From: Escherichia phage vB_EcoM-Pr103Blw
Strand: one strand, 5' to 3'
Sequence record: MW481326.1
Length of the DNA: 64,000 bases
Both the position numbers and the translations under genes were made by a program. This document shows positions 1-64,000 of this stretch, in pieces; within the stretch, counting starts at the first letter, position 1, and every line of letters starts with the position of its first letter. The notes beneath the pieces are model-generated. The model worked only from the letters and a program-made list of their open reading frames with translations. It was not told the origin of the DNA and did no database searches.

Positions 1-1200
1 GCCCCCTTAACATTTTCTTAACAATTTCTTAACAAACCCTACATAGTTATGCTTGTTAGAGACTTGTTAGCCCCTTGTTAAATCTCTGTTAAGACCACGT
101 AAAAGCCTTGTAAGAGTCTTTGACATATCCTTAAAAGCCTCTGTAAAGCCCTATAAAGAGCTATCCATACAGTTGAGGGGTAAATACTAGGGAGAGCCTT
201 AAAAGAGCTTACAAGGGGCTGTATAGGGCTTTTAAGAGGTATGTTTAAGAGTTCACTAAGAAAGGAAAGGGAACGATAAGAAAAGAGATAGTGACCATGT
301 TAATAGCTTGTTAAAAAGATTAAACACTTGTTAGAAACTTGTTAATTATCTTAATAAAATAACTCTTTAAAATTAACTTGTTAGCTCTTATTAGTCATCT
401 GTTAAGACTCTGTAAAGACTATTCAGCACTTGTTAGAAAACTGTTACATCCTTGTTAGTTCTGTTAAGAGACTGTTAAGACCTTTGAAGAGTTGTTAAGA
501 GCTTGTGAGAACTGTTAAGAGATTGTTAAGGATATTTTAAAATTTTGCAAAGTACTTGTAAGGGAGTTGTTAAGGGCTACCAAGCAGATATACATCCTAA
601 TCAGATATTTTTCAGTTCCTTCAAAGACCCTAAAAAATGACTTGACAACTCTATTTTATAAAAATTTTAAAATTCTGAATAATTACCTATACAGTCTTTT
701 AAAAATACAGGCATAAACAGGCTTATAAGATACCTTGTTAGTACCGTGTTAGACCTTGTGAGATAAGGTCTGTGAAGATATTCCTGTTAAGTTTGTTAAA
801 ACAGTCTATATAGAGGCTTAGTAATACCTAGTGAACACCTATAGAGAGTCACATAGCTTACCTAATGGGTTACTGTTAAGTAACACAGATAACCTAGAGA
901 TTAAGAGGTGTATAGAGGCTTCTAAGAGCGTATAGAGAGATGGTTAAGGTGATTGTATAGGTTGTTAAGAAGGCTTGTTAGAAGAGTGTTTAGAGGGCTA
1001 TTTAGAAGGGTTATACAGAGGGCTATTAAGACCACTAGATAGTTACTAAGATACTATATAGTACTATATAACTATATAGAGAGTAAGATTAAGAAGGTTG
1101 TTAAGAAGGATAGATATTTTATTCACATATGATGGTGACCCAGAGGTTGGGACAACCGATAAAATTTTATAAAAATTAAAAAGCCCCCAATTAAGGAGGC
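1..1200. repeat. Non-coding AT-rich array of short direct repeats (TTGTTAG / TGTTAAGA-like, more than 20 copies, plus CTTAAAAGAG-like motifs)
   Basis: No ORF of 60 aa or more; visible reiteration of cttgttag, ctgttaag, ttgttaaga at irregular 8-25 nt spacing. Confidence 0.7.
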
Positions 1201-1212
1201 TCTTAAGATATT

Positions 1213-1806
1213 TTAAATCAGTGTTTCCAGAACTGTTTTTAGTGATGACTTGGTTGTCTGATAAAAATGAGTAAAGCCATTGTTGTTATCAAATACCTGC
1301 ATCATGATATCATCTCCCTTGATTGGGTACACTCGGATATCATAGTGGAAACCATTAAAGACACAAGAGCCATTACAGAATGCACTAAAGTCATCCACTG
1401 AGATATACTCTTCATGTCCTGTGATTTTTATACAGATACCTTTACTCGGTCTCTTAGGATTAATATCTTCCATCACAGACATATTCTGTCCGCCAAGAGA
1501 TACCATAGTGACCACTTTACGGTTCTTCTGTCTAAAGTACATTTTAACTTTCTGCAAAGTGTCTTCATAGAACGGATAAGACTTCTCTACAAAGATTCCT
1601 TCAAGTGGCTCTTTACCATTTTCAACTTCTCTGGTATGCCGTACTGCAAAGATAATTTGTTGGAACCAGTCAAGATTTTCTTCGGAGAGTCCTTCCCGAA
1701 TATCATTCCAGTCAAGGACTAGATAGTTACCTTCAACTTCTTTTAAGTTGTCTTCTTTCATAGCTATCACACCATTATCGTAAAACTTGGTAAGCTGGAA
1801 CTGCAA
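1213..1806 (-). CDS. hypothetical protein
   Basis: 197-aa ORF, first member of contiguous leftward gene string; no recognisable motif. Confidence 0.45.
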   Translation of the reverse strand: MQFQLTKFYDNGVIAMKEDNLKEVEGNYLVLDWNDIREGLSEENLDWFQQIIFAVRHTREVENGKEPLEGIFVEKSYPFYEDTLQKVKMYFRQKNRKVVTMVSLGGQNMSVMEDINPKRPSKGICIKITGHEEYISVDDFSAFCNGSCVFNGFHYDIRVYPIKGDDIMMQVFDNNNGFTHFYQTTKSSLKTVLETLI

Positions 1807-5424: not shown

Positions 5425-5815
5425 AAAAACCTCTCTCTGCTTGTTCGATTTTTGCTCTTAAAGTTTCGCAATACTGTAAATGGTAGTTAGCTTCTTGTTC
5501 ATGTGTTGCTAACTGCCTTTCAAGAACAGTTTTATAGTAACCTGCAAGTTGCTCTTTTGTCAATGGGTGCTCTGAAATAATATCAAGTCCACTTTCACCA
5601 AGAGGATTGAATTGTCCATGCTCATTGACATTGTAAGTCTCAAACTTGAACATACCATTGTTCACAGACTCAATAGGTGACAGTTCAACAAGCTCTACAG
5701 TAAACCGTGTATACACCTTGTCGCCTCTTGAAACTACATTGTTTCCAATGATGCGTACAAGCGAACCATTACGAGTGTATTTAAAAGTCCCAAAGTCACT
5801 AGCCCAAAGTTTCAT
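5417..5815 (-). CDS. hypothetical protein
   Basis: 132-aa ORF. Confidence 0.45.
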   Translation of the reverse strand: MKLWASDFGTFKYTRNGSLVRIIGNNVVSRGDKVYTRFTVELVELSPIESVNNGMFKFETYNVNEHGQFNPLGESGLDIISEHPLTKEQLAGYYKTVLERQLATHEQEANYHLQYCETLRAKIEQAERGFYE

Positions 5816-5865: not shown

Positions 5866-6330
5866 TTACTTTGGGTATACACTGTCAAGGTAAATATCAG
5901 CTTCCATTCTGCGTCTGTTTTTAAGACCGTTTGAAGTGACCTTCTCACCTTTGACCGTTACCTTGTTCCACCACTGCATAGCTTCTGCACAACCTACCTT
6001 ATTACCAGCGTTGTGGCGCTTGATAAATGTAGAGTCCTGCATAGCCGTGATACCGATGTTGTATGTTTCACTAACAAGGGCATCAAACTCATTTTGAGTG
6101 GTTGGGGTTTTGATTGCTTTGTTGACTGCACTGACAAACTTTTCAACATCAGCAAGAAGATACTGTTCAGCCTGTTCCTCAGTAATCTTCATACCCATTT
6201 TGACAGGTCTTCCATCAATACGGATTGTCCCGTAACCAATTGTTGGGATTCCGGCAGAATCTTTGTAGGCTTCTAACTCAAGACCTTCAAAGAATTTAAT
6301 AGCCTCTAGACCCTTCTTTGATAGTTGCAT
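5866..6330 (-). CDS. endolysin, GH24 phage lysozyme family
   Basis: N-terminal FEGLELEAYKDSAGIPTIGYG matches the E-x8-D-x5-T catalytic pattern of T4/lambda-type lysozymes; strong RBS GGAGGTG upstream. Confidence 0.7.
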   Translation of the reverse strand: MQLSKKGLEAIKFFEGLELEAYKDSAGIPTIGYGTIRIDGRPVKMGMKITEEQAEQYLLADVEKFVSAVNKAIKTPTTQNEFDALVSETYNIGITAMQDSTFIKRHNAGNKVGCAEAMQWWNKVTVKGEKVTSNGLKNRRRMEADIYLDSVYPK

Positions 6331-8965: not shown

Positions 8966-9092
8966 TAGGCTTATAAATACTTAGAAGATAACTTAAAAGG
9001 TTCCTCTAAAAAGGCTATTTAAACAGATATCTTTCTGGATATCTATCTTTTATCTTAAAAGCCTTTTAAGAGGTCTTATAAGAGGCATACCA

Positions 9093-9464
9093 ATGAAAAA
9101 CAGAACAAACAAAGGCCAGTTTAAAAAAGGCCAGTCTGGAAACCCATCTGGAAGACCAAAAGGCTCTCGTAACAAAAGCTCACTTGTAAAAGCTCAACTG
9201 ACCATTGATAATTCTGCTGAGTTTGCTGCAAAGTTGTTTGAGGCGATTGTTACAAGGGACGCGGCTAAGCTTGCAGAGTTTGGGTTAAACACAGACGACG
9301 TAACCATCAAGAGCATGATTGAGGTCGGTAAAACTATCATGACCCACTCAGCAGGTGAGATGAAAGCAATTGCAGCAGACACTAAGAAGACTCCTGATAA
9401 TGGTGGTCAGTCTCAGACAGATAACAAACCAACGTTCTCTGCTGTTGCAACCCTTAAAAAATAA
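9093..9464 (+). CDS. hypothetical protein with basic N-terminus (GNPSGRPKGSRNK motif)
   Basis: 123-aa ORF immediately upstream of Ro60-like gene. Confidence 0.5.
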   Translation: MKNRTNKGQFKKGQSGNPSGRPKGSRNKSSLVKAQLTIDNSAEFAAKLFEAIVTRDAAKLAEFGLNTDDVTIKSMIEVGKTIMTHSAGEMKAIAADTKKTPDNGGQSQTDNKPTFSAVATLKK

Positions 9465-9477
9465 TTTTAAAAGATGT

Positions 9478-9511
9478 TGACAGACTCTATAAAGTTGCTC
9501 TAAAGTCTGTC
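9478..9511 (+). promoter_or_regulatory. 9-bp perfect hairpin (TGACAGACT ... AGTCTGTCA) overlapping a TTGACA hexamer
   Basis: Inverted repeat read directly; no T-run, so likely operator or RNA structure rather than terminator. Confidence 0.4.
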
Positions 9512-15235: not shown

Positions 15236-15269
15236 CCACTTCTAAGGATTCTTACGAGAGTCCTTAAAT

Positions 15270-15342
15270 GTGGCCTTATCATAAACGGTAATGACCCATG
15301 CTGTGAACATGGTCTATACGGGTTCAAATCCCGTAGGTCACC
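15270..15342 (+). tRNA. tRNA-His (anticodon GTG)
   Basis: anticodon stem CCATG/CATGG loop CTGTGAA, T-arm ACGGG-TTCAAAT-CCCGT, discriminator C, CCA encoded. Confidence 0.65.
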
Positions 15343-16575: not shown

Positions 16576-16776
16576 ATGAGCGAGACCGTTTATAAAGAAC
16601 TTTATGAAGCTAATAAAAAGCTAGAATTTATGCAGAATACTATCATGGCAATTGCAGACAGATTGTCTGTAGCAACAGGTATTGATATTAAAGAGGCATC
16701 TATGGATGCACTTCTTGATGCTGTTGATGCAAAGTTCGAAGTTAAGAAAGAAGAGACTGCTACAGACTCTGAATAA
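16576..16776 (+). CDS. hypothetical small protein
   Basis: 66-aa ORF directly upstream of terminase with RBS GGAGAAAA. Confidence 0.4.
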   Translation: MSETVYKELYEANKKLEFMQNTIMAIADRLSVATGIDIKEASMDALLDAVDAKFEVKKEETATDSE

Positions 16777-42940: not shown

Positions 42941-43270
42941 TTAATCTGCCAACCTTAAATTGAAATTAACACCAAATTTTTCACACACTTCCAACATATA
43001 CTCAAGAGAGACATTCCCAGTGAGGTGGATTATGTTGGATACACGAGCTTGAGAGATACCACAAATTTTAGCGACTTGCTCTTGAGAAAGACCTCTGGAT
43101 TTAATCTCTCTCTTAAAACGATGTGCAACGAAGTCTCTCATTTCGTCTACATCCATTGGACAAATATAACTCTCCATTTCAGCCTCTCTATCAGCCTCCC
43201 AATCATCTTGTGGAGCATAAGGGTCAAAAACCTCATTCATCTTTCTTCTTCCGTTTACGTGAAGTATCAA
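42941..43270 (-). CDS. XRE-family helix-turn-helix DNA-binding protein
   Basis: GLSQEQVAKICGISQARVSNI matches Cro/C1-type HTH pattern. Confidence 0.55.
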   Translation of the reverse strand: MILHVNGRRKMNEVFDPYAPQDDWEADREAEMESYICPMDVDEMRDFVAHRFKREIKSRGLSQEQVAKICGISQARVSNIIHLTGNVSLEYMLEVCEKFGVNFNLRLAD

Positions 43271-59333: not shown

Positions 59334-61568
59334 ATGATTAAGACAATTAAAAAATCAAACGGTACAGTAGTAAGCTTTGACCCAGAAAGACTGAATAAGT
59401 GGGCATCATGGGCAGATAAGCGTGGAATTATCTGGTCAGAAGTCACTATGGAAGCTATGAAGCGTGTCTATGAAGGTTGCACTACAAAAGAGATGCACCA
59501 AGCTATGATTGATGTTTGTGTTGATAAACAAACTCAAGAGTACTCAGACATGGCTGGACGGCTACTTCTGGGTATTATCTACAAAGAAGCCTTTGGAGGC
59601 TTTACTAAGGTTCCTACGCTGGTTACCTTCGTTAAAAATATGGAGAGAGCAGGGCTTTGGGAGAAGATGGACTATTCTCAGGAAGAGCTTGAATATCTGC
59701 AAGGGTACATTGTGCACTCAAAAGATATCTCTTACGGTTATGCAGTCCTGAAACAGTTCAGAGACAAGTATGGTATCCGTGATATTAAAACGGGAAGACT
59801 TTTTGAGTCACCACAATTTATGTTTATGGGTATGGCTATGAAAGCCTTCGAGAAGCAACCAAAGCACCGCAGACTGCAAGATGTGATTAAGCTGTACACT
59901 TACCTGTCTGACCTGAAGATTAATGCTCCTACGCCTTATCTGAATGGTTTACGTGCTACTAAGTCAGGTTATGCGTCATGCTGTTTGATTAAGGCAAATG
60001 ATACTGCTGAGTCACTTGGTATTGCTGCAAAGGTTGCTTATGATATGACTACGAAGCAAGCTGGTATTGGTATGCTGATGGAGACTCGCACTATTGGTGA
60101 TGGTATCCGTCAAAATACTATTGAGCACATGGGTAAACTGCCTTATTACAAGCTTGTACGTTCATCTGTAGAGGCAAATAAACAGAAGAGTCGTGGTGGT
60201 TCAGCTAACAACTTCTACACCGCTCTAGACCCGCAGATTGAAGATTTACTACGTTTGAAGCACCCTACAACGGTTCCTTCTAAACGTATTAATGAGATGG
60301 ACTACTCATTTGGTACAAATGATTATTTCTGGCAGTGTGTTCAATATGATACAGATTGGTTGCTATTCTCTTACAAGGATGCGCCAAAACTTTATGATAT
60401 GTTCTACACCGCATCTGCTGATGAGTTCGCTATGGCAGTTGGTCACGCAGTACACTCTGGTGTTAAGCACAGACGAGTAAAGGCTCGTGAAATTGCTAAA
60501 CTGTTTATCCAGCAGCGTTACGCAACAGGTCGTGTGTATCCATTCTTCACAAATAATGCAAATACACATACACCATTTAAAGAACCTTTGAAGATGTCAA
60601 ATCTTTGTATGGAAATTGTGTTGCCAGTGTACGGCTTTGAGAAAGAGACAGACCTTTACAGAGACGATGCTGTGAAGGAGGATGGTGAGGTAGCTCTTTG
60701 CTTCCTAGCTAGTTTGGTTGCAGGGAGAATTTCAGAAGATGAATACGCTGACGTTGCTTATTATGCTCTTGCAATGGTTGACTCCGTTATTGACCTTATG
60801 GATTATCCGTATCCGTCGATGCGTAACCATGTTCAGAAGCGTCGTTCTGTTGGGATTGGCCTTACAAATGTGGCTCATTACCTTGCGAAGAACTACGTGA
60901 ACTACTCTTCAAGGGCTGGTAAGACAAAGCTTCACGAACTTGCAGAGATGCACTCTTACTATCTGCATGAAGCTTCTCTAAGACTTGCTAAAGAGCGTGG
61001 TGTACCTGAATACATGAAGTTCACTAAGTACCCTGAAGGATGGGTTCCTCCGAAGACAGCTAACAAGAAGATTGATGAGAAGCATGATGCAAAACTAAGA
61101 TATGATTGGGATGACTTAGCACAACGTATCAAAGAAAATGGTGGCATCCGAAACTCTGTACTTGAGGCTTATATGCCTAATGAGAGTTCTTCACTGGCAA
61201 CTAATACGACAAATGGCTTGTACCCAATTCGTGACTTTATTTTAACTAAAAAGTCTGCAACTGGTAACGTACTGTTTATTGTTCCAGATTATGAAGAGTT
61301 GAAGTATGTCTATGAAATTGCTTGGGATATTGACACCTTTGACCTGATTGATTGTTATGCAATTGTCCAAAAGTTCACTGGTCAAGCTATCTCTTCAGAT
61401 TTCTATGTTGACTACGCAAAAGCTAAGAAGGTATCATTGGCTCAAGCTTTGAAGTATATGATTTATGCCAACTCGGTAGGTATGAAAACCATGTACTACC
61501 TTAACAGTCGCATCGGTGTAGGTAAGTCTGCACTGCAAGATGCTTATTGCGAGGGCTGTGGTGTTTAG
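59334..61568 (+). CDS. nrdA: ribonucleotide reductase class Ia large subunit
   Basis: 744 aa; N-terminal ATP-cone-like (IKKSNGTVVSFDPERLNKW); followed by nrdB candidate. Confidence 0.7.
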   Translation: MIKTIKKSNGTVVSFDPERLNKWASWADKRGIIWSEVTMEAMKRVYEGCTTKEMHQAMIDVCVDKQTQEYSDMAGRLLLGIIYKEAFGGFTKVPTLVTFVKNMERAGLWEKMDYSQEELEYLQGYIVHSKDISYGYAVLKQFRDKYGIRDIKTGRLFESPQFMFMGMAMKAFEKQPKHRRLQDVIKLYTYLSDLKINAPTPYLNGLRATKSGYASCCLIKANDTAESLGIAAKVAYDMTTKQAGIGMLMETRTIGDGIRQNTIEHMGKLPYYKLVRSSVEANKQKSRGGSANNFYTALDPQIEDLLRLKHPTTVPSKRINEMDYSFGTNDYFWQCVQYDTDWLLFSYKDAPKLYDMFYTASADEFAMAVGHAVHSGVKHRRVKAREIAKLFIQQRYATGRVYPFFTNNANTHTPFKEPLKMSNLCMEIVLPVYGFEKETDLYRDDAVKEDGEVALCFLASLVAGRISEDEYADVAYYALAMVDSVIDLMDYPYPSMRNHVQKRRSVGIGLTNVAHYLAKNYVNYSSRAGKTKLHELAEMHSYYLHEASLRLAKERGVPEYMKFTKYPEGWVPPKTANKKIDEKHDAKLRYDWDDLAQRIKENGGIRNSVLEAYMPNESSSLATNTTNGLYPIRDFILTKKSATGNVLFIVPDYEELKYVYEIAWDIDTFDLIDCYAIVQKFTGQAISSDFYVDYAKAKKVSLAQALKYMIYANSVGMKTMYYLNSRIGVGKSALQDAYCEGCGV

Positions 61569-61623
61569 TTTTAATAACTATGAGGGTCGTAAAAGACCCT
61601 CTAAAAATAACTTTGGAGAAACT

Positions 61624-61881
61624 ATGAAAGATTTGATAGCAAACCATGAATGGCCTATATACTTGCTCCACAAACCTCGAAAAACGCTGTACTATGTGAG
61701 TAGCACAGACATGATGATAAAACAAAATGATGACTCATGGGTCGATGGCGTCTCTTACATCTCTACAGCAGATGGTAAAATCTATGCAAGACCTTATGAC
61801 ATGTTTAATAAAGAAAATTGGGAAGTTTTAGGCAGAAAACAAGCCTTAGAGATGATAAAGAAAGGAGAAATCACATTATGA
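61624..61881 (+). CDS. hypothetical protein between nrdA and nrdB
   Basis: Start trimmed to ATG at 61624 after hairpin GAGGGTC-gtaaaa-GACCCTC and RBS GGAGAAACT. Confidence 0.4.
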   Translation: MKDLIANHEWPIYLLHKPRKTLYYVSSTDMMIKQNDDSWVDGVSYISTADGKIYARPYDMFNKENWEVLGRKQALEMIKKGEITL

Positions 61882-62951
61882 TTAACCAACACCCAATCTT
61901 TTTAGGTGGTGAGAGAAAGACATTTGACTCACTTAACAAGCACTACCCAAAAATCTTTGAGCTATATAAACAACAAAAAGCGCAAGACTGGTCAGAAGAT
62001 GAGTTCCCTTTTGAACAATCACGTCTTGATTTTGAGAGTGTGCCAGCATCAATGTCAGGTGTAATGCTTGAGATTCTTAAGTGGCAGTGGGAAGCAGATA
62101 CCCAAGTTGCTAAGAGTTTAGCGTTTGCTTTTGCACCATTCATCTCTGATGACATTTATGCAACTGCAATTATGAAGCAGTCTGAGATTGAAAACTTACA
62201 TGCTCTGACTTACTCAGAGATTGTAAGGCAATGTATTAAAAACCCTGAAACAATCTTAGATGAGATTAACCAGAACATTGCTGTACAAGACCGATTAAAA
62301 ACTGTGAACCGTGTTCTTGAAGAATTGCTGGGTGAAGGTATAAACTATCGACTGAGTTATGTCCGTGACTCACTTCTGGACAAAGACCCTTTACACTTTC
62401 ATAAAGTGATTCTGAAAGGTCTATTTGCAGTGACTGCACTGGAAGGTATATCTTTTATGGCATCCTTTGCATGTACTTTTGCACTTGATGCTCAAGATAA
62501 ATTTCAGGGTATTGCTCAAGCTGTCCAGAAAATTATGCTTGATGAAATCCTTCACACTAAAATTGATATTGAAGTTTTAAAAGAAACTTTAAGAGATGAT
62601 GAGTGGCAAAAAGCTTTCCAACAAATTCTTCCAGAGATTAAAGTAATCTTAGATGAAGTAGTTGAAAGTGAAGAAAAATGGTCGTATTATATCTTCTCCG
62701 AAGGACGTGCTGTAGTTGGTTTAAATACAAAGCTTCTTCATGAGTGGGTTTACTATAATGCTGCCCCACTGTATGATATGTTTGGCATTCCCAGAGATTT
62801 TGTAGCTCCTAAAGAACCACCTTTGAAGTATATGATTAAGAAGATGGAAATTGATAAAGAGCAGAATGCTAATCAGGAGCAACAGAACGGTGCGTATTTA
62901 TTGAATACTGTTGTAGATGATTTGAATAGTGGATTTTTAGAGGTTCCTTAA
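61878..62951 (+). CDS. nrdB: ribonucleotide reductase class Ia small subunit
   Basis: about 357 aa helical ORF after nrdA; start set to ATG at 61878 with RBS AAAGGAGA; call rests on position and size. Confidence 0.6.
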   Translation: MINQHPIFLGGERKTFDSLNKHYPKIFELYKQQKAQDWSEDEFPFEQSRLDFESVPASMSGVMLEILKWQWEADTQVAKSLAFAFAPFISDDIYATAIMKQSEIENLHALTYSEIVRQCIKNPETILDEINQNIAVQDRLKTVNRVLEELLGEGINYRLSYVRDSLLDKDPLHFHKVILKGLFAVTALEGISFMASFACTFALDAQDKFQGIAQAVQKIMLDEILHTKIDIEVLKETLRDDEWQKAFQQILPEIKVILDEVVESEEKWSYYIFSEGRAVVGLNTKLLHEWVYYNAAPLYDMFGIPRDFVAPKEPPLKYMIKKMEIDKEQNANQEQQNGAYLLNTVVDDLNSGFLEVP

Positions 62952-63193
62952 TGACTTATGTAATTTACTCCAAAACTGGATGCCCTCAGTGTGAGACTGC
63001 AAAGAATTTTGCGAAAGCTCGTGGTATTGACCATGTTGTGAGAATGTTAGGGCAGGATTATGAACTGTCAGACCTGATGGATATTGCACAGATGCCAGTT
63101 CGTCAGATGCCATTCATCATGAAAACTGACGGTCAAAACTTAAAACCTGTTGGAACGCTACAGAATTTTATGGCAGAGGTGAATAATGCTTAA
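62951..63193 (+). CDS. glutaredoxin-like redoxin (NrdH/Grx-type)
   Basis: 80 aa with CPQC redox motif near N-terminus, directly after nrdB. Confidence 0.6.
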   Translation: MTYVIYSKTGCPQCETAKNFAKARGIDHVVRMLGQDYELSDLMDIAQMPVRQMPFIMKTDGQNLKPVGTLQNFMAEVNNA

Positions 63194-63392
63194 ACGCCTT
63201 TTGGAAGGTTTGGTTGTTGATGCACCAGCCATTGTGATTGGTATGCTTGTTGTTAACCTATTTACTGATTTTGAACAAGGTTCATTGTTTGGAGCCATGC
63301 TATTATGGGTTATCTTTGAAATATTAGAGATACAGCTAGGCATCACTGAAAAACTAAGAAAACTCGTTTCAAAGTTTTCTAAAAAGATTTAA
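63186..63392 (+). CDS. small membrane protein
   Basis: 68-aa ORF with two hydrophobic segments. Confidence 0.35.
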   Translation: MLKRLLEGLVVDAPAIVIGMLVVNLFTDFEQGSLFGAMLLWVIFEILEIQLGITEKLRKLVSKFSKKI

Positions 63393-63399
63393 AATGAAA

Positions 63400-63421
63400 G
63401 GGTCTCTTCGGAGACCTTTTT
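63400..63421 (+). terminator. Rho-independent terminator GGTCTC-TTCG-GAGACC + TTTTT
   Basis: UUCG tetraloop hairpin plus T5. Confidence 0.65.
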
Positions 63422-63440
63422 AGCATGTAAAGGGGCAATA

Positions 63441-64000
63441 ATGAACAAAGTACAGATTATTAAAAAGAATGGCTCACTTGAAGAACCGGATATCAAAAAA
63501 GTTTTAGCAGCAGTAACTAAGTCAGCTAACAGGGTTGGGTATAAAGAACTCCCACCAGATGTTACCCAAGCTCTTGAGTCAGCATTTATGAGGCTTCTGG
63601 TGAAGTCCACTAAGCAGAATAATTTGCTCATCTCGGTAAATGACATTCACAGTATTGTTGAGGGTGCTTTGGCAGAAGTCAATCACGAGATTTACGAGTC
63701 TTACTCAACATATAGAAATTACCGTAAAGAGGTTGCTCAAAATTGGGATGAGCTTTACCAAAAGACTAGAGACACACTCTTCTTAGGTGACCGTGAAAAT
63801 GCCAACTTTGACAGCAGTTTAATTTCTACAAAAGGTTCAATTATTCGTGGTTATCTGACTAAAGAAATCTTTAAACAATACCATTTAACACCAGAGGAAC
63901 TCGAAGCCATTGAAAAAGGGTTTATCTACATCCATGACTTAAGAGACCTAATCTTTGGTGGTATTAACTGTTGCCTGTTTGACATTGGTAAAGTACTGAA
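63441..64000 (+). CDS. nrdD: anaerobic ribonucleoside-triphosphate reductase (class III), N-terminal part; truncated by window end
   Basis: ATG at 63441 after RBS AAAGGGG; N-terminal ATP-cone-like VQIIKKNGSLEEPDIKKV and GFIYIHDLRD block; ORF open to window end. Confidence 0.5.
   Translation, partial: MNKVQIIKKNGSLEEPDIKKVLAAVTKSANRVGYKELPPDVTQALESAFMRLLVKSTKQNNLLISVNDIHSIVEGALAEVNHEIYESYSTYRNYRKEVAQNWDELYQKTRDTLFLGDRENANFDSSLISTKGSIIRGYLTKEIFKQYHLTPEELEAIEKGFIYIHDLRDLIFGGINCCLFDIGKVL

Follow-up and report, generated by a model that had tools for sequence, protein, structure and literature searches.

Phased and oriented TGTTA repeats at the genome end of Escherichia phage vB_EcoM-Pr103Blw, a putative packaging platform

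Layout of the terminal region

The stretch of DNA considered here, 64,000 nucleotides of Escherichia phage vB_EcoM-Pr103Blw (MW481326.1) and referred to below as the window, opens with a gene-free field of short repeats built on the pentamer TGTTA. A BLAST comparison of positions 1–1250 with 50,697 phage records returned 290 matches, 237 of them covering at least 80% of the query, nearly all of which are Felix O1-like myophages (Ounavirinae: Felixounavirus, Mooglevirus, Suspvirus and Kolesnikvirus) with identities of at most 92.8%. The window is Felixounavirus (Felix O1-type) DNA, and it encodes 26 transfer RNAs (tRNAs) along with a large terminase subunit (TerL) of the T4 type and the usual set of structural proteins. 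Positions 1–581 are almost certainly the left copy of the direct terminal repeat (DTR), with positions 582–1212 as the adjoining unique non-coding spacer, and the TGTTA units may serve as protein-binding sites for the processing and packaging of the genome ends. The features of the field and its border are as follows, the DTR being taken as just assigned and a cut being written as ^.

1–581, no strand: left DTR copy, running from the physical left end at base 1 (GCCCCCTTAACA...) to ...TGTTAAGGGCTACC at 581
7–35, minus strand: three reversed units, CTTAACA (TAACA at 8, 19 and 30), 11 bp apart, beginning 7 nt inside the left end
52–95, plus strand: four forward units (TGTTA at 54, 65, 76 and 87), exactly 11 bp apart
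96–297, plus strand: degenerate units (CTTGTAAG, CTTAAAAG, CTGTAAAG, CTATAAAG, CTTACAAG, CTTTTAAG and so on) in the less conserved middle of the DTR, conservation 0.79–0.90
298–405, plus strand: forward units at 298, 309, 329, 340, 379 and 400, in the most AT-rich part of the DTR
429–573, plus strand: densest array, TGTTA at 431, 442, 453, 462, 473, 493, 513, 524 and 568
574–594, no strand: right DTR boundary, GGGCTACC^AAGCAGATATACA, cut between 581 and 582
582–733, no strand: unique AT-rich spacer without TGTTA, conservation 0.85–0.94, CAGATAT at 585–591 and 602–608
734–1110, plus strand: repeat field of the left-end unique DNA, TGTTA at 736, 747, 785, 794, 874, 963, 976 and 1099
within 734–1110, plus strand: TATAGAG at 809, 840, 911, 931 and 1075, interleaved with the TGTTA units
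1051–1083, plus strand: ACTATATAG, three copies in tandem
1179–1204, minus strand: intrinsic terminator, which closes the minus-strand gene block and shields the repeat field from transcription
1213–1806, minus strand: first gene beside the field (197 aa, phrog_4330, function not assigned), outside the element and marking its limit

Between positions 1 and 1200, TGTTA occurs 27 times in the forward and 4 times in the reverse orientation, whereas 500 dinucleotide-preserving shuffles average 2.7 and never exceed 9, and every other 1.2-kb segment of the window has 6 or fewer. The longer form YTGTTAR is found 24 times in the forward orientation (shuffles: mean 1.0, maximum 4; other 1.2-kb segments: at most 3), and the extended consensus of the unit reads c-Y-TGTTA-R-r-a. 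Outside 1–1212, segments of 600 bp hold at most 5 TGTTA (median 1), and no TGTTA-rich segment occurs elsewhere. Thus, the more than 20 short direct repeats that an initial annotation, made from the letters of the window, had placed at its start stand far beyond a shuffled AT-rich background. The same annotation listed CTTAAAAGAG-like repeats, which are present but weaker, with 4 copies against 0.5 expected, a number equal to the shuffle maximum of 4.

The units are regularly spaced. Ten intervals between adjacent forward sites are exactly 11 bp, the commonest value, and four are 20–21 bp; within the array at 429–573 the spacings run 11, 11, 9, 11, 20, 20, 11 and 44 bp, and the last unit stops 9 nt short of the right DTR boundary. 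Pairwise distances between sites bunch at 11, 20–22 (nine distances), 31–33, 40–44, 51–53 and 60–63 bp, with a periodicity near 10.3 bp, and the sites therefore lie on one face of the helix. The blocks at 7–35 and 52–95 together form an inverted arrangement, i.e., "<<< >>>>", and the guanine–cytosine (GC) content of the field falls to 21% at 301–400 and 24% at 601–700. The units are thus phased, oriented and, as described below, conserved, and "iteron field", the term used at first, is a fair description of them.

The array is non-coding, as had been supposed. The only open reading frames (ORFs) in 1–1200 span 31–49 aa and are intact in just 1 to 10 of 25 relatives, and they were rejected as genes on account of these non-conserved reading frames; the terminator and the gene stop at 1213 bound the array. 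In relatives, a matching terminator lies behind the last plus-strand gene across the junction, and in Felix O1 the counterpart of the field (12771–13965) sits within a gap of ~1.6 kb without annotated gene, flanked by plus-strand ORF23 and minus-strand ORF24, so that the gene blocks converge on it. A sigma-70 promoter scan of the field gave 8 sites, as compared with 6.1 in shuffles, which is not above chance; a TTGACA at 641 was rejected as a promoter, having no usable −10 element. A Rfam scan of 1–1400 revealed no structured non-coding RNA family, the sole match being a sub-threshold Phe_leader over the terminator.

Genome ends and their conservation in Ounavirinae

The record of the relative Ro111lw (MH571750) opens at the same base as the window (GCCCCCTTAACATTTTC), and its first 613 bp are 100% identical to its last 613 bp. 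The record of D4 (PP886228) also opens at this base and contains an exact start/end duplication of 581 bp, again 100% identical, the two duplications sharing their boundaries; both genomes thus carry the same sequence at both ends, as is expected of a short DTR. Five further records (PP892526, PP952733, OR498728, OR863361 and MN994503) open at the homologous base, and MN994498 and PP461118 finish at it on the opposite strand. The comparison with the termini of related phages, suggested as a check by the initial annotation, hence shows that base 1 of the window coincides with the start, or on the other strand the end, of at least eight independent GenBank records. The repeat of D4 and that of Ro111lw finish in ...GTTAAGGGCTACC^AAGCAGATATACA, a sequence that the window also carries, its boundary falling between 581 and 582. 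From the shared record ends and the exact duplications with the same boundaries, it therefore follows, with near certainty, that 1–581 is the left DTR. The window contains a single DTR copy because it covers 64 kb of a genome of roughly 88 kb; the second copy lies outside it, and it is in the close relatives that both copies are seen.

Terminal repeats of this kind have been reported before. PhageTerm analysis yielded a direct terminal repeat of 613 bp for Ro111lw (PMC6454146) and a terminal repeat of 581 bp for Pr103Blw, with 26 tRNAs as in the window (PMC8303462). In addition, DTRs were reported for Philippine coliphages using PhageTerm, and short DTRs were suggested for Erwinia Felix O1-like phages. 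The "terminal-repeat boundary region" that was one of the options first offered for the array is thus correct, and it can now be made exact, with base 1 as the left end and 581/582 as the right repeat boundary. In the replicating concatemer, the field is the right-hand three quarters of a gene-free junction of ~1.6 kb, bracketed by terminators.

For the comparison across relatives, a search of IMG/VR with the pattern GGCYACYAAGYAGATATACA found 31 Ounavirinae contigs, Erwinia phages included; the strand-aware map of TGTTA covers 38 junctions, and the conservation alignment comprises 25 non-redundant relatives. The 38 junctions share a common layout, in which 2–5 reversed TAACA units just inside the left end are followed by 3–5 forward units, a gap of ~200 bp with degenerate units and then ~12–15 forward units reaching 9 nt from the right boundary, beyond which there is an AT-rich, TGTTA-free spacer of ~150 bp and then further forward units. 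The "<<<" block is found at the left end of all Ounavirinae relatives, with its copy number shifting by indels of 11 or 22 bp. Within the DTR, the TGTTA cores are 97.7% conserved, as compared with 85.2% at other DTR positions, and over the whole field a random-placement test of core conservation gave p ~0.0008. Indels of at least 4 bp relative to the window are nearly all 10–12 or 19–24 bp in size, showing that whole units have been gained or lost, and the DTR lengths inferred among relatives, 567 to 658 bp, vary through such gain and loss.

A distant comparison is with the Erwinia phage vEam_W_25 (Kolesnikvirus; PP079183.1), which has only ~50% identity over the region, BLAST aligning 473–594 alone. 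This phage keeps TGTTAAGA units and the switch from reversed to forward orientation, and its spacing series (11, 11, 9, 20, 20, 20, 11, 22) is almost that of the window (11, 11, 9, 11, 20, 20, 11). Its homologous right boundary reads GGCCAC^TAAGTAGATATACA, and in both phages the TGTTA-dense 600-bp segments are confined to the termini. We note in passing that the record of vEam_W_25 ends in AGATCGGAA (84650–84658), a remnant of an Illumina adapter that abuts the homologous GGCCAC; since this is what a true molecular end is expected to give, a small contamination of the record incidentally marks the true end of the DNA.

At both boundaries, the cut lies 7–9 nt past a TGTTA unit that points toward it, the nearest units being TGTTAAGGGGGC^ (bottom strand) on the left and TGTTAAGGGCTACC^ on the right, and each cut has a conserved sequence just outside the repeat, namely AAAGTTACGTAAATGCTA^ at the left cut and ^AAGCAGATATACA at the right. 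Felixouna-, Moogle- and Suspvirus all retain AAAGTTACGTAAA(T/A)(G/A)CTA^GCCCCCTTAACA as the context of the left boundary. The element AAAGTTACGTAAA occurs twice, 21 bp apart, and includes the palindrome TTACGTAA (positions 5950–6002 of Felix O1 segment L001, and in more than 20 relatives); it stops 6 nt before the left cut, just outside the window. Being highly conserved, AAAGTTACGTAAA is a candidate determinant of left-end cleavage. A hairpin across the left cut, seen in Felix O1, was dropped since it is not conserved in D4.

A second motif is arranged around the repeat in inverted symmetry. CTCTATA is found four times 224–318 bp before the left cut (e.g., at ~5685–5790 of Felix O1 segment L001), and TATAGAG four to five times 227–450 bp past the right cut in Felix O1 coordinates and five times at 805–1090 of the window, the other 62.8 kb of which holds only 1 + 3 copies of the two forms. 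The motif is present in Felixouna-, Moogle- and Suspvirus and absent from the Erwinia phages. The right-end spacer of vEam_W_25 (PP079183.1, 83787–84069) carries a genus-specific array instead, YTTCTAA in 11 copies, mostly as pairs 10–12 bp apart, and the TGTTA units common to the subfamily are kept within the repeat. On the right-unique side TGTTA is rare, and the other motifs reiterated there are CTCTATA and AAAGTTAC.

The putative packaging platform and competing explanations

We propose that the ~30 helically phased and oriented TGTTA units are protein-binding sites, on which the bound protein would nucleate a large nucleoprotein complex along one face of the DNA. Such a complex would mark the concatemer junction and position the terminase cuts at both repeat boundaries, with the repeat then duplicated as the DNA is packaged, in the manner of T7. 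Such an assembly platform, acting in cis in processing and packaging, is suggested because the region is gene-free, insulated by terminators and centred on the DTR, because phased, oriented and conserved units abut both cuts, and because a conserved sequence of its own adjoins each cut outside the repeat. From this analysis, we consider the role of the array as a packaging platform at the concatemer junction to be about an even bet, and the whole explanation, i.e., the identity of DTR and spacer together with the packaging role of the phased sites, is given a probability of roughly 0.55. We infer that the binder would be phage-encoded, since these phages routinely grow aerobically, when the host reader of TGTTA, ArcA, is mostly inactive.

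Several observations weigh against this proposal. No binding protein was found, and no small terminase subunit is annotated. A 66-aa ORF directly upstream of TerL, considered as a small terminase, has no match in Pfam, NCBIfam or the PDB and hits only phrog_4397, whose function is not assigned. The TGTTA units in 582–1212 are conserved no better than their surroundings (0.84 vs. 0.86), the same being true of the cores in 582–1130, and ~30 sites spread over 1.2 kb far exceed what a terminase ring needs. In T7, PhageMaP data indicate that most individual insertions into the end regions are tolerated, and such repeats may therefore be redundant or dispensable. Finally, the tandem 11-bp units and the 11-bp indels could derive in part from replication slippage rather than from selection.

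The 66-aa ORF (16576–16776, plus strand) encodes an acidic product, and its position is kept in the Erwinia phage (tblastn E = 0.11); it could be a packaging accessory protein. A cluster of regulator binding sites, another of the options in the initial annotation, is plausible in form, but the XRE-like protein named there as the possible binder (42941–43270) is a poor candidate. Although this protein does belong to HTH_3, no homologue of it was detected in the Erwinia Kolesnikvirus phages, and these keep the same TGTTA arrays.

The closest likeness to the proposed platform is found in T7 and T3. Dunn and Studier reportedly described, in 1983, the 160-bp terminal repeat of T7 as flanked by two short-repeat arrays, SRL and SRR, and the T7 sequence, which we checked, contains at least 16 copies of CCTAAAG across this repeat and its two flanks. 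Both kinds of phage have a linear genome with a short DTR, and one oriented motif is reiterated in gene-free DNA inside the repeat and in the adjoining unique sequence, its function in T7/T3 being presumed to be concatemer processing and packaging; in the present case, TGTTA is reiterated in the DTR and the left-unique spacer, and other motifs on the right-unique side. The two systems also differ. First, the motif is CCTAAAG in T7 and TGTTA here. Second, the repeat of the window phage is ~4 times longer, and its 11-bp phasing is stricter. Third, the window phage shows an orientation flip at the left end and the inverted symmetry of TATAGAG/CTCTATA. Fourth, the window phage is a myovirus, with a TerL of the T4-like Terminase_6N/6C type. 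End processing in T7 depends on the phage RNA polymerase, and neither a phage RNA polymerase nor a gp18-like small subunit was found. The TGTTA junction is an analogue, not a homologue, of SRL/SRR.

Other phages place short repeated protein-binding elements by the cut site, e.g., the R sites of lambda cosB together with IHF, the hexamers of P1 pac and pacL/pacR of SPP1. As in the window phage, these elements are clustered and adjoin the cut, and DNA bending and phasing matter at such sites; however, they number 3–7 in 100–200 bp and serve cos or headful systems, whereas the window phage has many more over >1 kb and fixed terminal repeats. T5 has a repeat-rich kilobase without genes on the inner border of its DTR (the "injection stop signal", 9140–10149 in NC_005859), but its repeats are of the TGTGCAAATCCGAC type without TGTTA enrichment, and its terminal repeat is 10 kb long and contains genes.

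The alternative that survives best is that the units are binding sites for phosphorylated ArcA (ArcA-P) of the host, which the phage ends would recruit or soak up; this reading is compatible with the packaging role and we consider it unlikely. ArcA-P could act as an architectural helper, like IHF at lambda cos, or as a redox sensor for a phage with both aerobic and anaerobic ribonucleotide reductases; the sites could also be a decoy, relieving the repression of host respiration genes. Its sites consist of 10-bp direct repeats with TGTTA as the most conserved core, 11 bp from centre to centre, with 2–5 repeats at 11 or 22 bp, and a spacing of 12 bp abolishes binding to the extra repeat (Park and Kiley 2014, PMC4173790; Park et al. 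2013, PMC3798270). The invariant cores of the window, mostly 11 bp and otherwise 20–22 bp apart, agree with this spacing, and the field and the ArcA-P operators have in common the direct orientation, the extra repeats at 11 or 22 bp and the multi-repeat design, which is cooperative in the operators. Phages of E. coli, Salmonella, Citrobacter and Erwinia carry the identical motif amid diverging flanking sequence. However, the flanks of the units are unlike the ArcA consensus ATGTTAAAAA, since 25 of the 27 units have a pyrimidine before TGTTA, where ArcA has A, and the consensus after it is RRA, where ArcA has AAAA. Furthermore, chromosomal operators have 2–5 repeats, with a ATGTTAAAAA-like element overlapping a sigma-70 promoter, whereas the field has ~30 units and its promoter-like sites are at chance.

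Evidence from host and phage genes points both ways. Profile and phmmer searches of the six-frame ORFs of the window and of one full relative, made with approximate queries, detected no OmpR/PhoB-type (ArcA-like) protein, which favours a host reader. A Salmonella transposon screen placed arcB, himA and himD among the loci whose loss gives resistance to Felix O1; arcA, however, was not among them, and the effect of the arcB group was ascribed to RpoS. The T5-like phage Aji_GE has the same arcB phenotype, yet the terminal repeat of T5 has no TGTTA array, and T5 as a second TGTTA-array phage, considered on account of this common phenotype, proved negative. The phage family encodes both the aerobic NrdAB and the anaerobic NrdDG (window ~60000–64000; D4 segment L155 10533–18043) and is therefore equipped for both oxygen regimes, but the phages grow well aerobically, when ArcA-P is low. 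In addition, a 5-mer match to one of ~200 known host regulators could be a coincidence, and unrelated AT-rich viral contigs also bear 11-bp TGTTA arrays: a scan of IMG/VR for four TGTTA at 11-bp spacing gave more than 120 matches, mostly simple tandem repeats in such contigs, the few non-tandem arrays having uninformative neighbour genes. In one unrelated contig (IMGVR_UViG_3300012667_000971, ~5590–5720 of segment L111), CTAACA occurs three times and is followed by ~8 CTGTTAG-type units, two of them degenerate, mostly at 11-bp spacing, i.e., with the same reversed-then-forward grammar, next to uninformative DUF932 and GP88 genes.

A stronger form of the same idea, in which the termini are a sponge for ArcA-P with ~30 elements per end region, ~23 of them in the DTR and thus in two copies per genome, appears to us decidedly unlikely. 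If true, ArcA-P would polymerise on the termini and could couple end processing or replication to the redox state of the host, hundreds of replicating genomes could titrate it and derepress respiratory metabolism, and the phage would provide a cis-encoded transcription-factor sponge on a virus.

It is also quite improbable that the field is, or contains, the replication origin of the phage, in which the phased iterons would bind an initiator and open an adjacent AT-rich segment. Direct repeats do flank AT-rich troughs (301–400 and 601–700) in a non-coding and transcriptionally insulated region of conserved architecture, and the literature searched describes no origin for this phage group. However, the units are 11 bp long, as opposed to the usual 17–22 bp, no initiator-like gene is adjacent, and the field contains no IHF consensus. 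DnaA boxes are no more frequent than chance predicts (the field has 1, the window 9 vs. 10.9 expected), the GC skew of the window merely tracks gene orientation, and the motif blocks follow the two repeat boundaries rather than a single AT-rich core. Iteron origins, as well as the parC locus of R1, which consists of ten 11-bp repeats bound by ParR, share with the array the phased direct repeats (units of 11 bp in parC), which there bind many copies of one small protein in a higher-order complex; they differ in that the window phage array has no adjacent partner gene and lies at the terminus of a lytic phage genome.

Finally, the units may have no sequence-specific reader and be low-complexity DNA made by slippage and tolerated at a gene-free end, perhaps aiding recombination or annealing between ends, a reading with which the unit-sized indels, the tolerance of T7 end regions to most insertions and the ordinary conservation of the units in 582–1212 agree but which is very unlikely, because the DTR cores are much better conserved than their spacers and the motif, the orientation switch and the spacing grammar persist across genera that are ~50% identical here, and because the inter-unit spacers differ from one another, unlike recent slippage products.

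Significance and further observations

Terminal repeats are already known for Felixounavirus genomes, whereas no description of the internal motif architecture of the DTR was found in the literature searched; the paper on the Felix O1 genome reports direct repeats of 24 bp or longer elsewhere, none of them in this region. The field belongs to the class of short terminal repeats with reiterated junction repeats, within which its strict phasing, orientation switch, second flanking motif and resemblance to ArcA sites are unusual. We know of no settled account, even for T7, of how terminal-repeat ends are recognized and duplicated, and the TGTTA architecture offers a concrete, mutable cis element for studying both steps in DTR phages. 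If the ArcA match were functional, phage DNA processing would be tied to host oxygen sensing in the gut, which would be new.

Felix O1-type phages are used in Salmonella typing, biocontrol and therapy cocktails, and hundreds of their genomes have been deposited with arbitrary starts. The exact ends (...GCTA^GCCCCCTTAACA and GGGCTACC^AAGCAGATATACA) enable the correct orientation of these genomes, the detection of chimeric records and guidance in engineering, where inserts must spare the junction.

The initial annotation had regarded motifs near 9060, 11825, 12745 and 15245 as related to the array. These exist as sequence but are not TGTTA units and belong to a different class, i.e., near-palindromic triplets of the CTTWWAAG type, ~12 bp apart, at 8970–9082, 11827–11857, 12747–12777 and ~15245–15280. 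They sit in the divergent promoter region between minus- and plus-strand blocks and in tRNA spacers, some overlapping AAGAGG ribosome-binding sites, and they could be promoter elements or be bound by a phage regulator. A loose unit model, CTnnnAAG, was dropped as too permissive, with 478 matches across the window. Lastly, a 92%-identical copy of the Felix O1-type terminal repeat was observed at 135884–136478 of GU169904.1, a record of 147 kb named Staphylococcus phage SA1, which is probably chimeric or contaminated.

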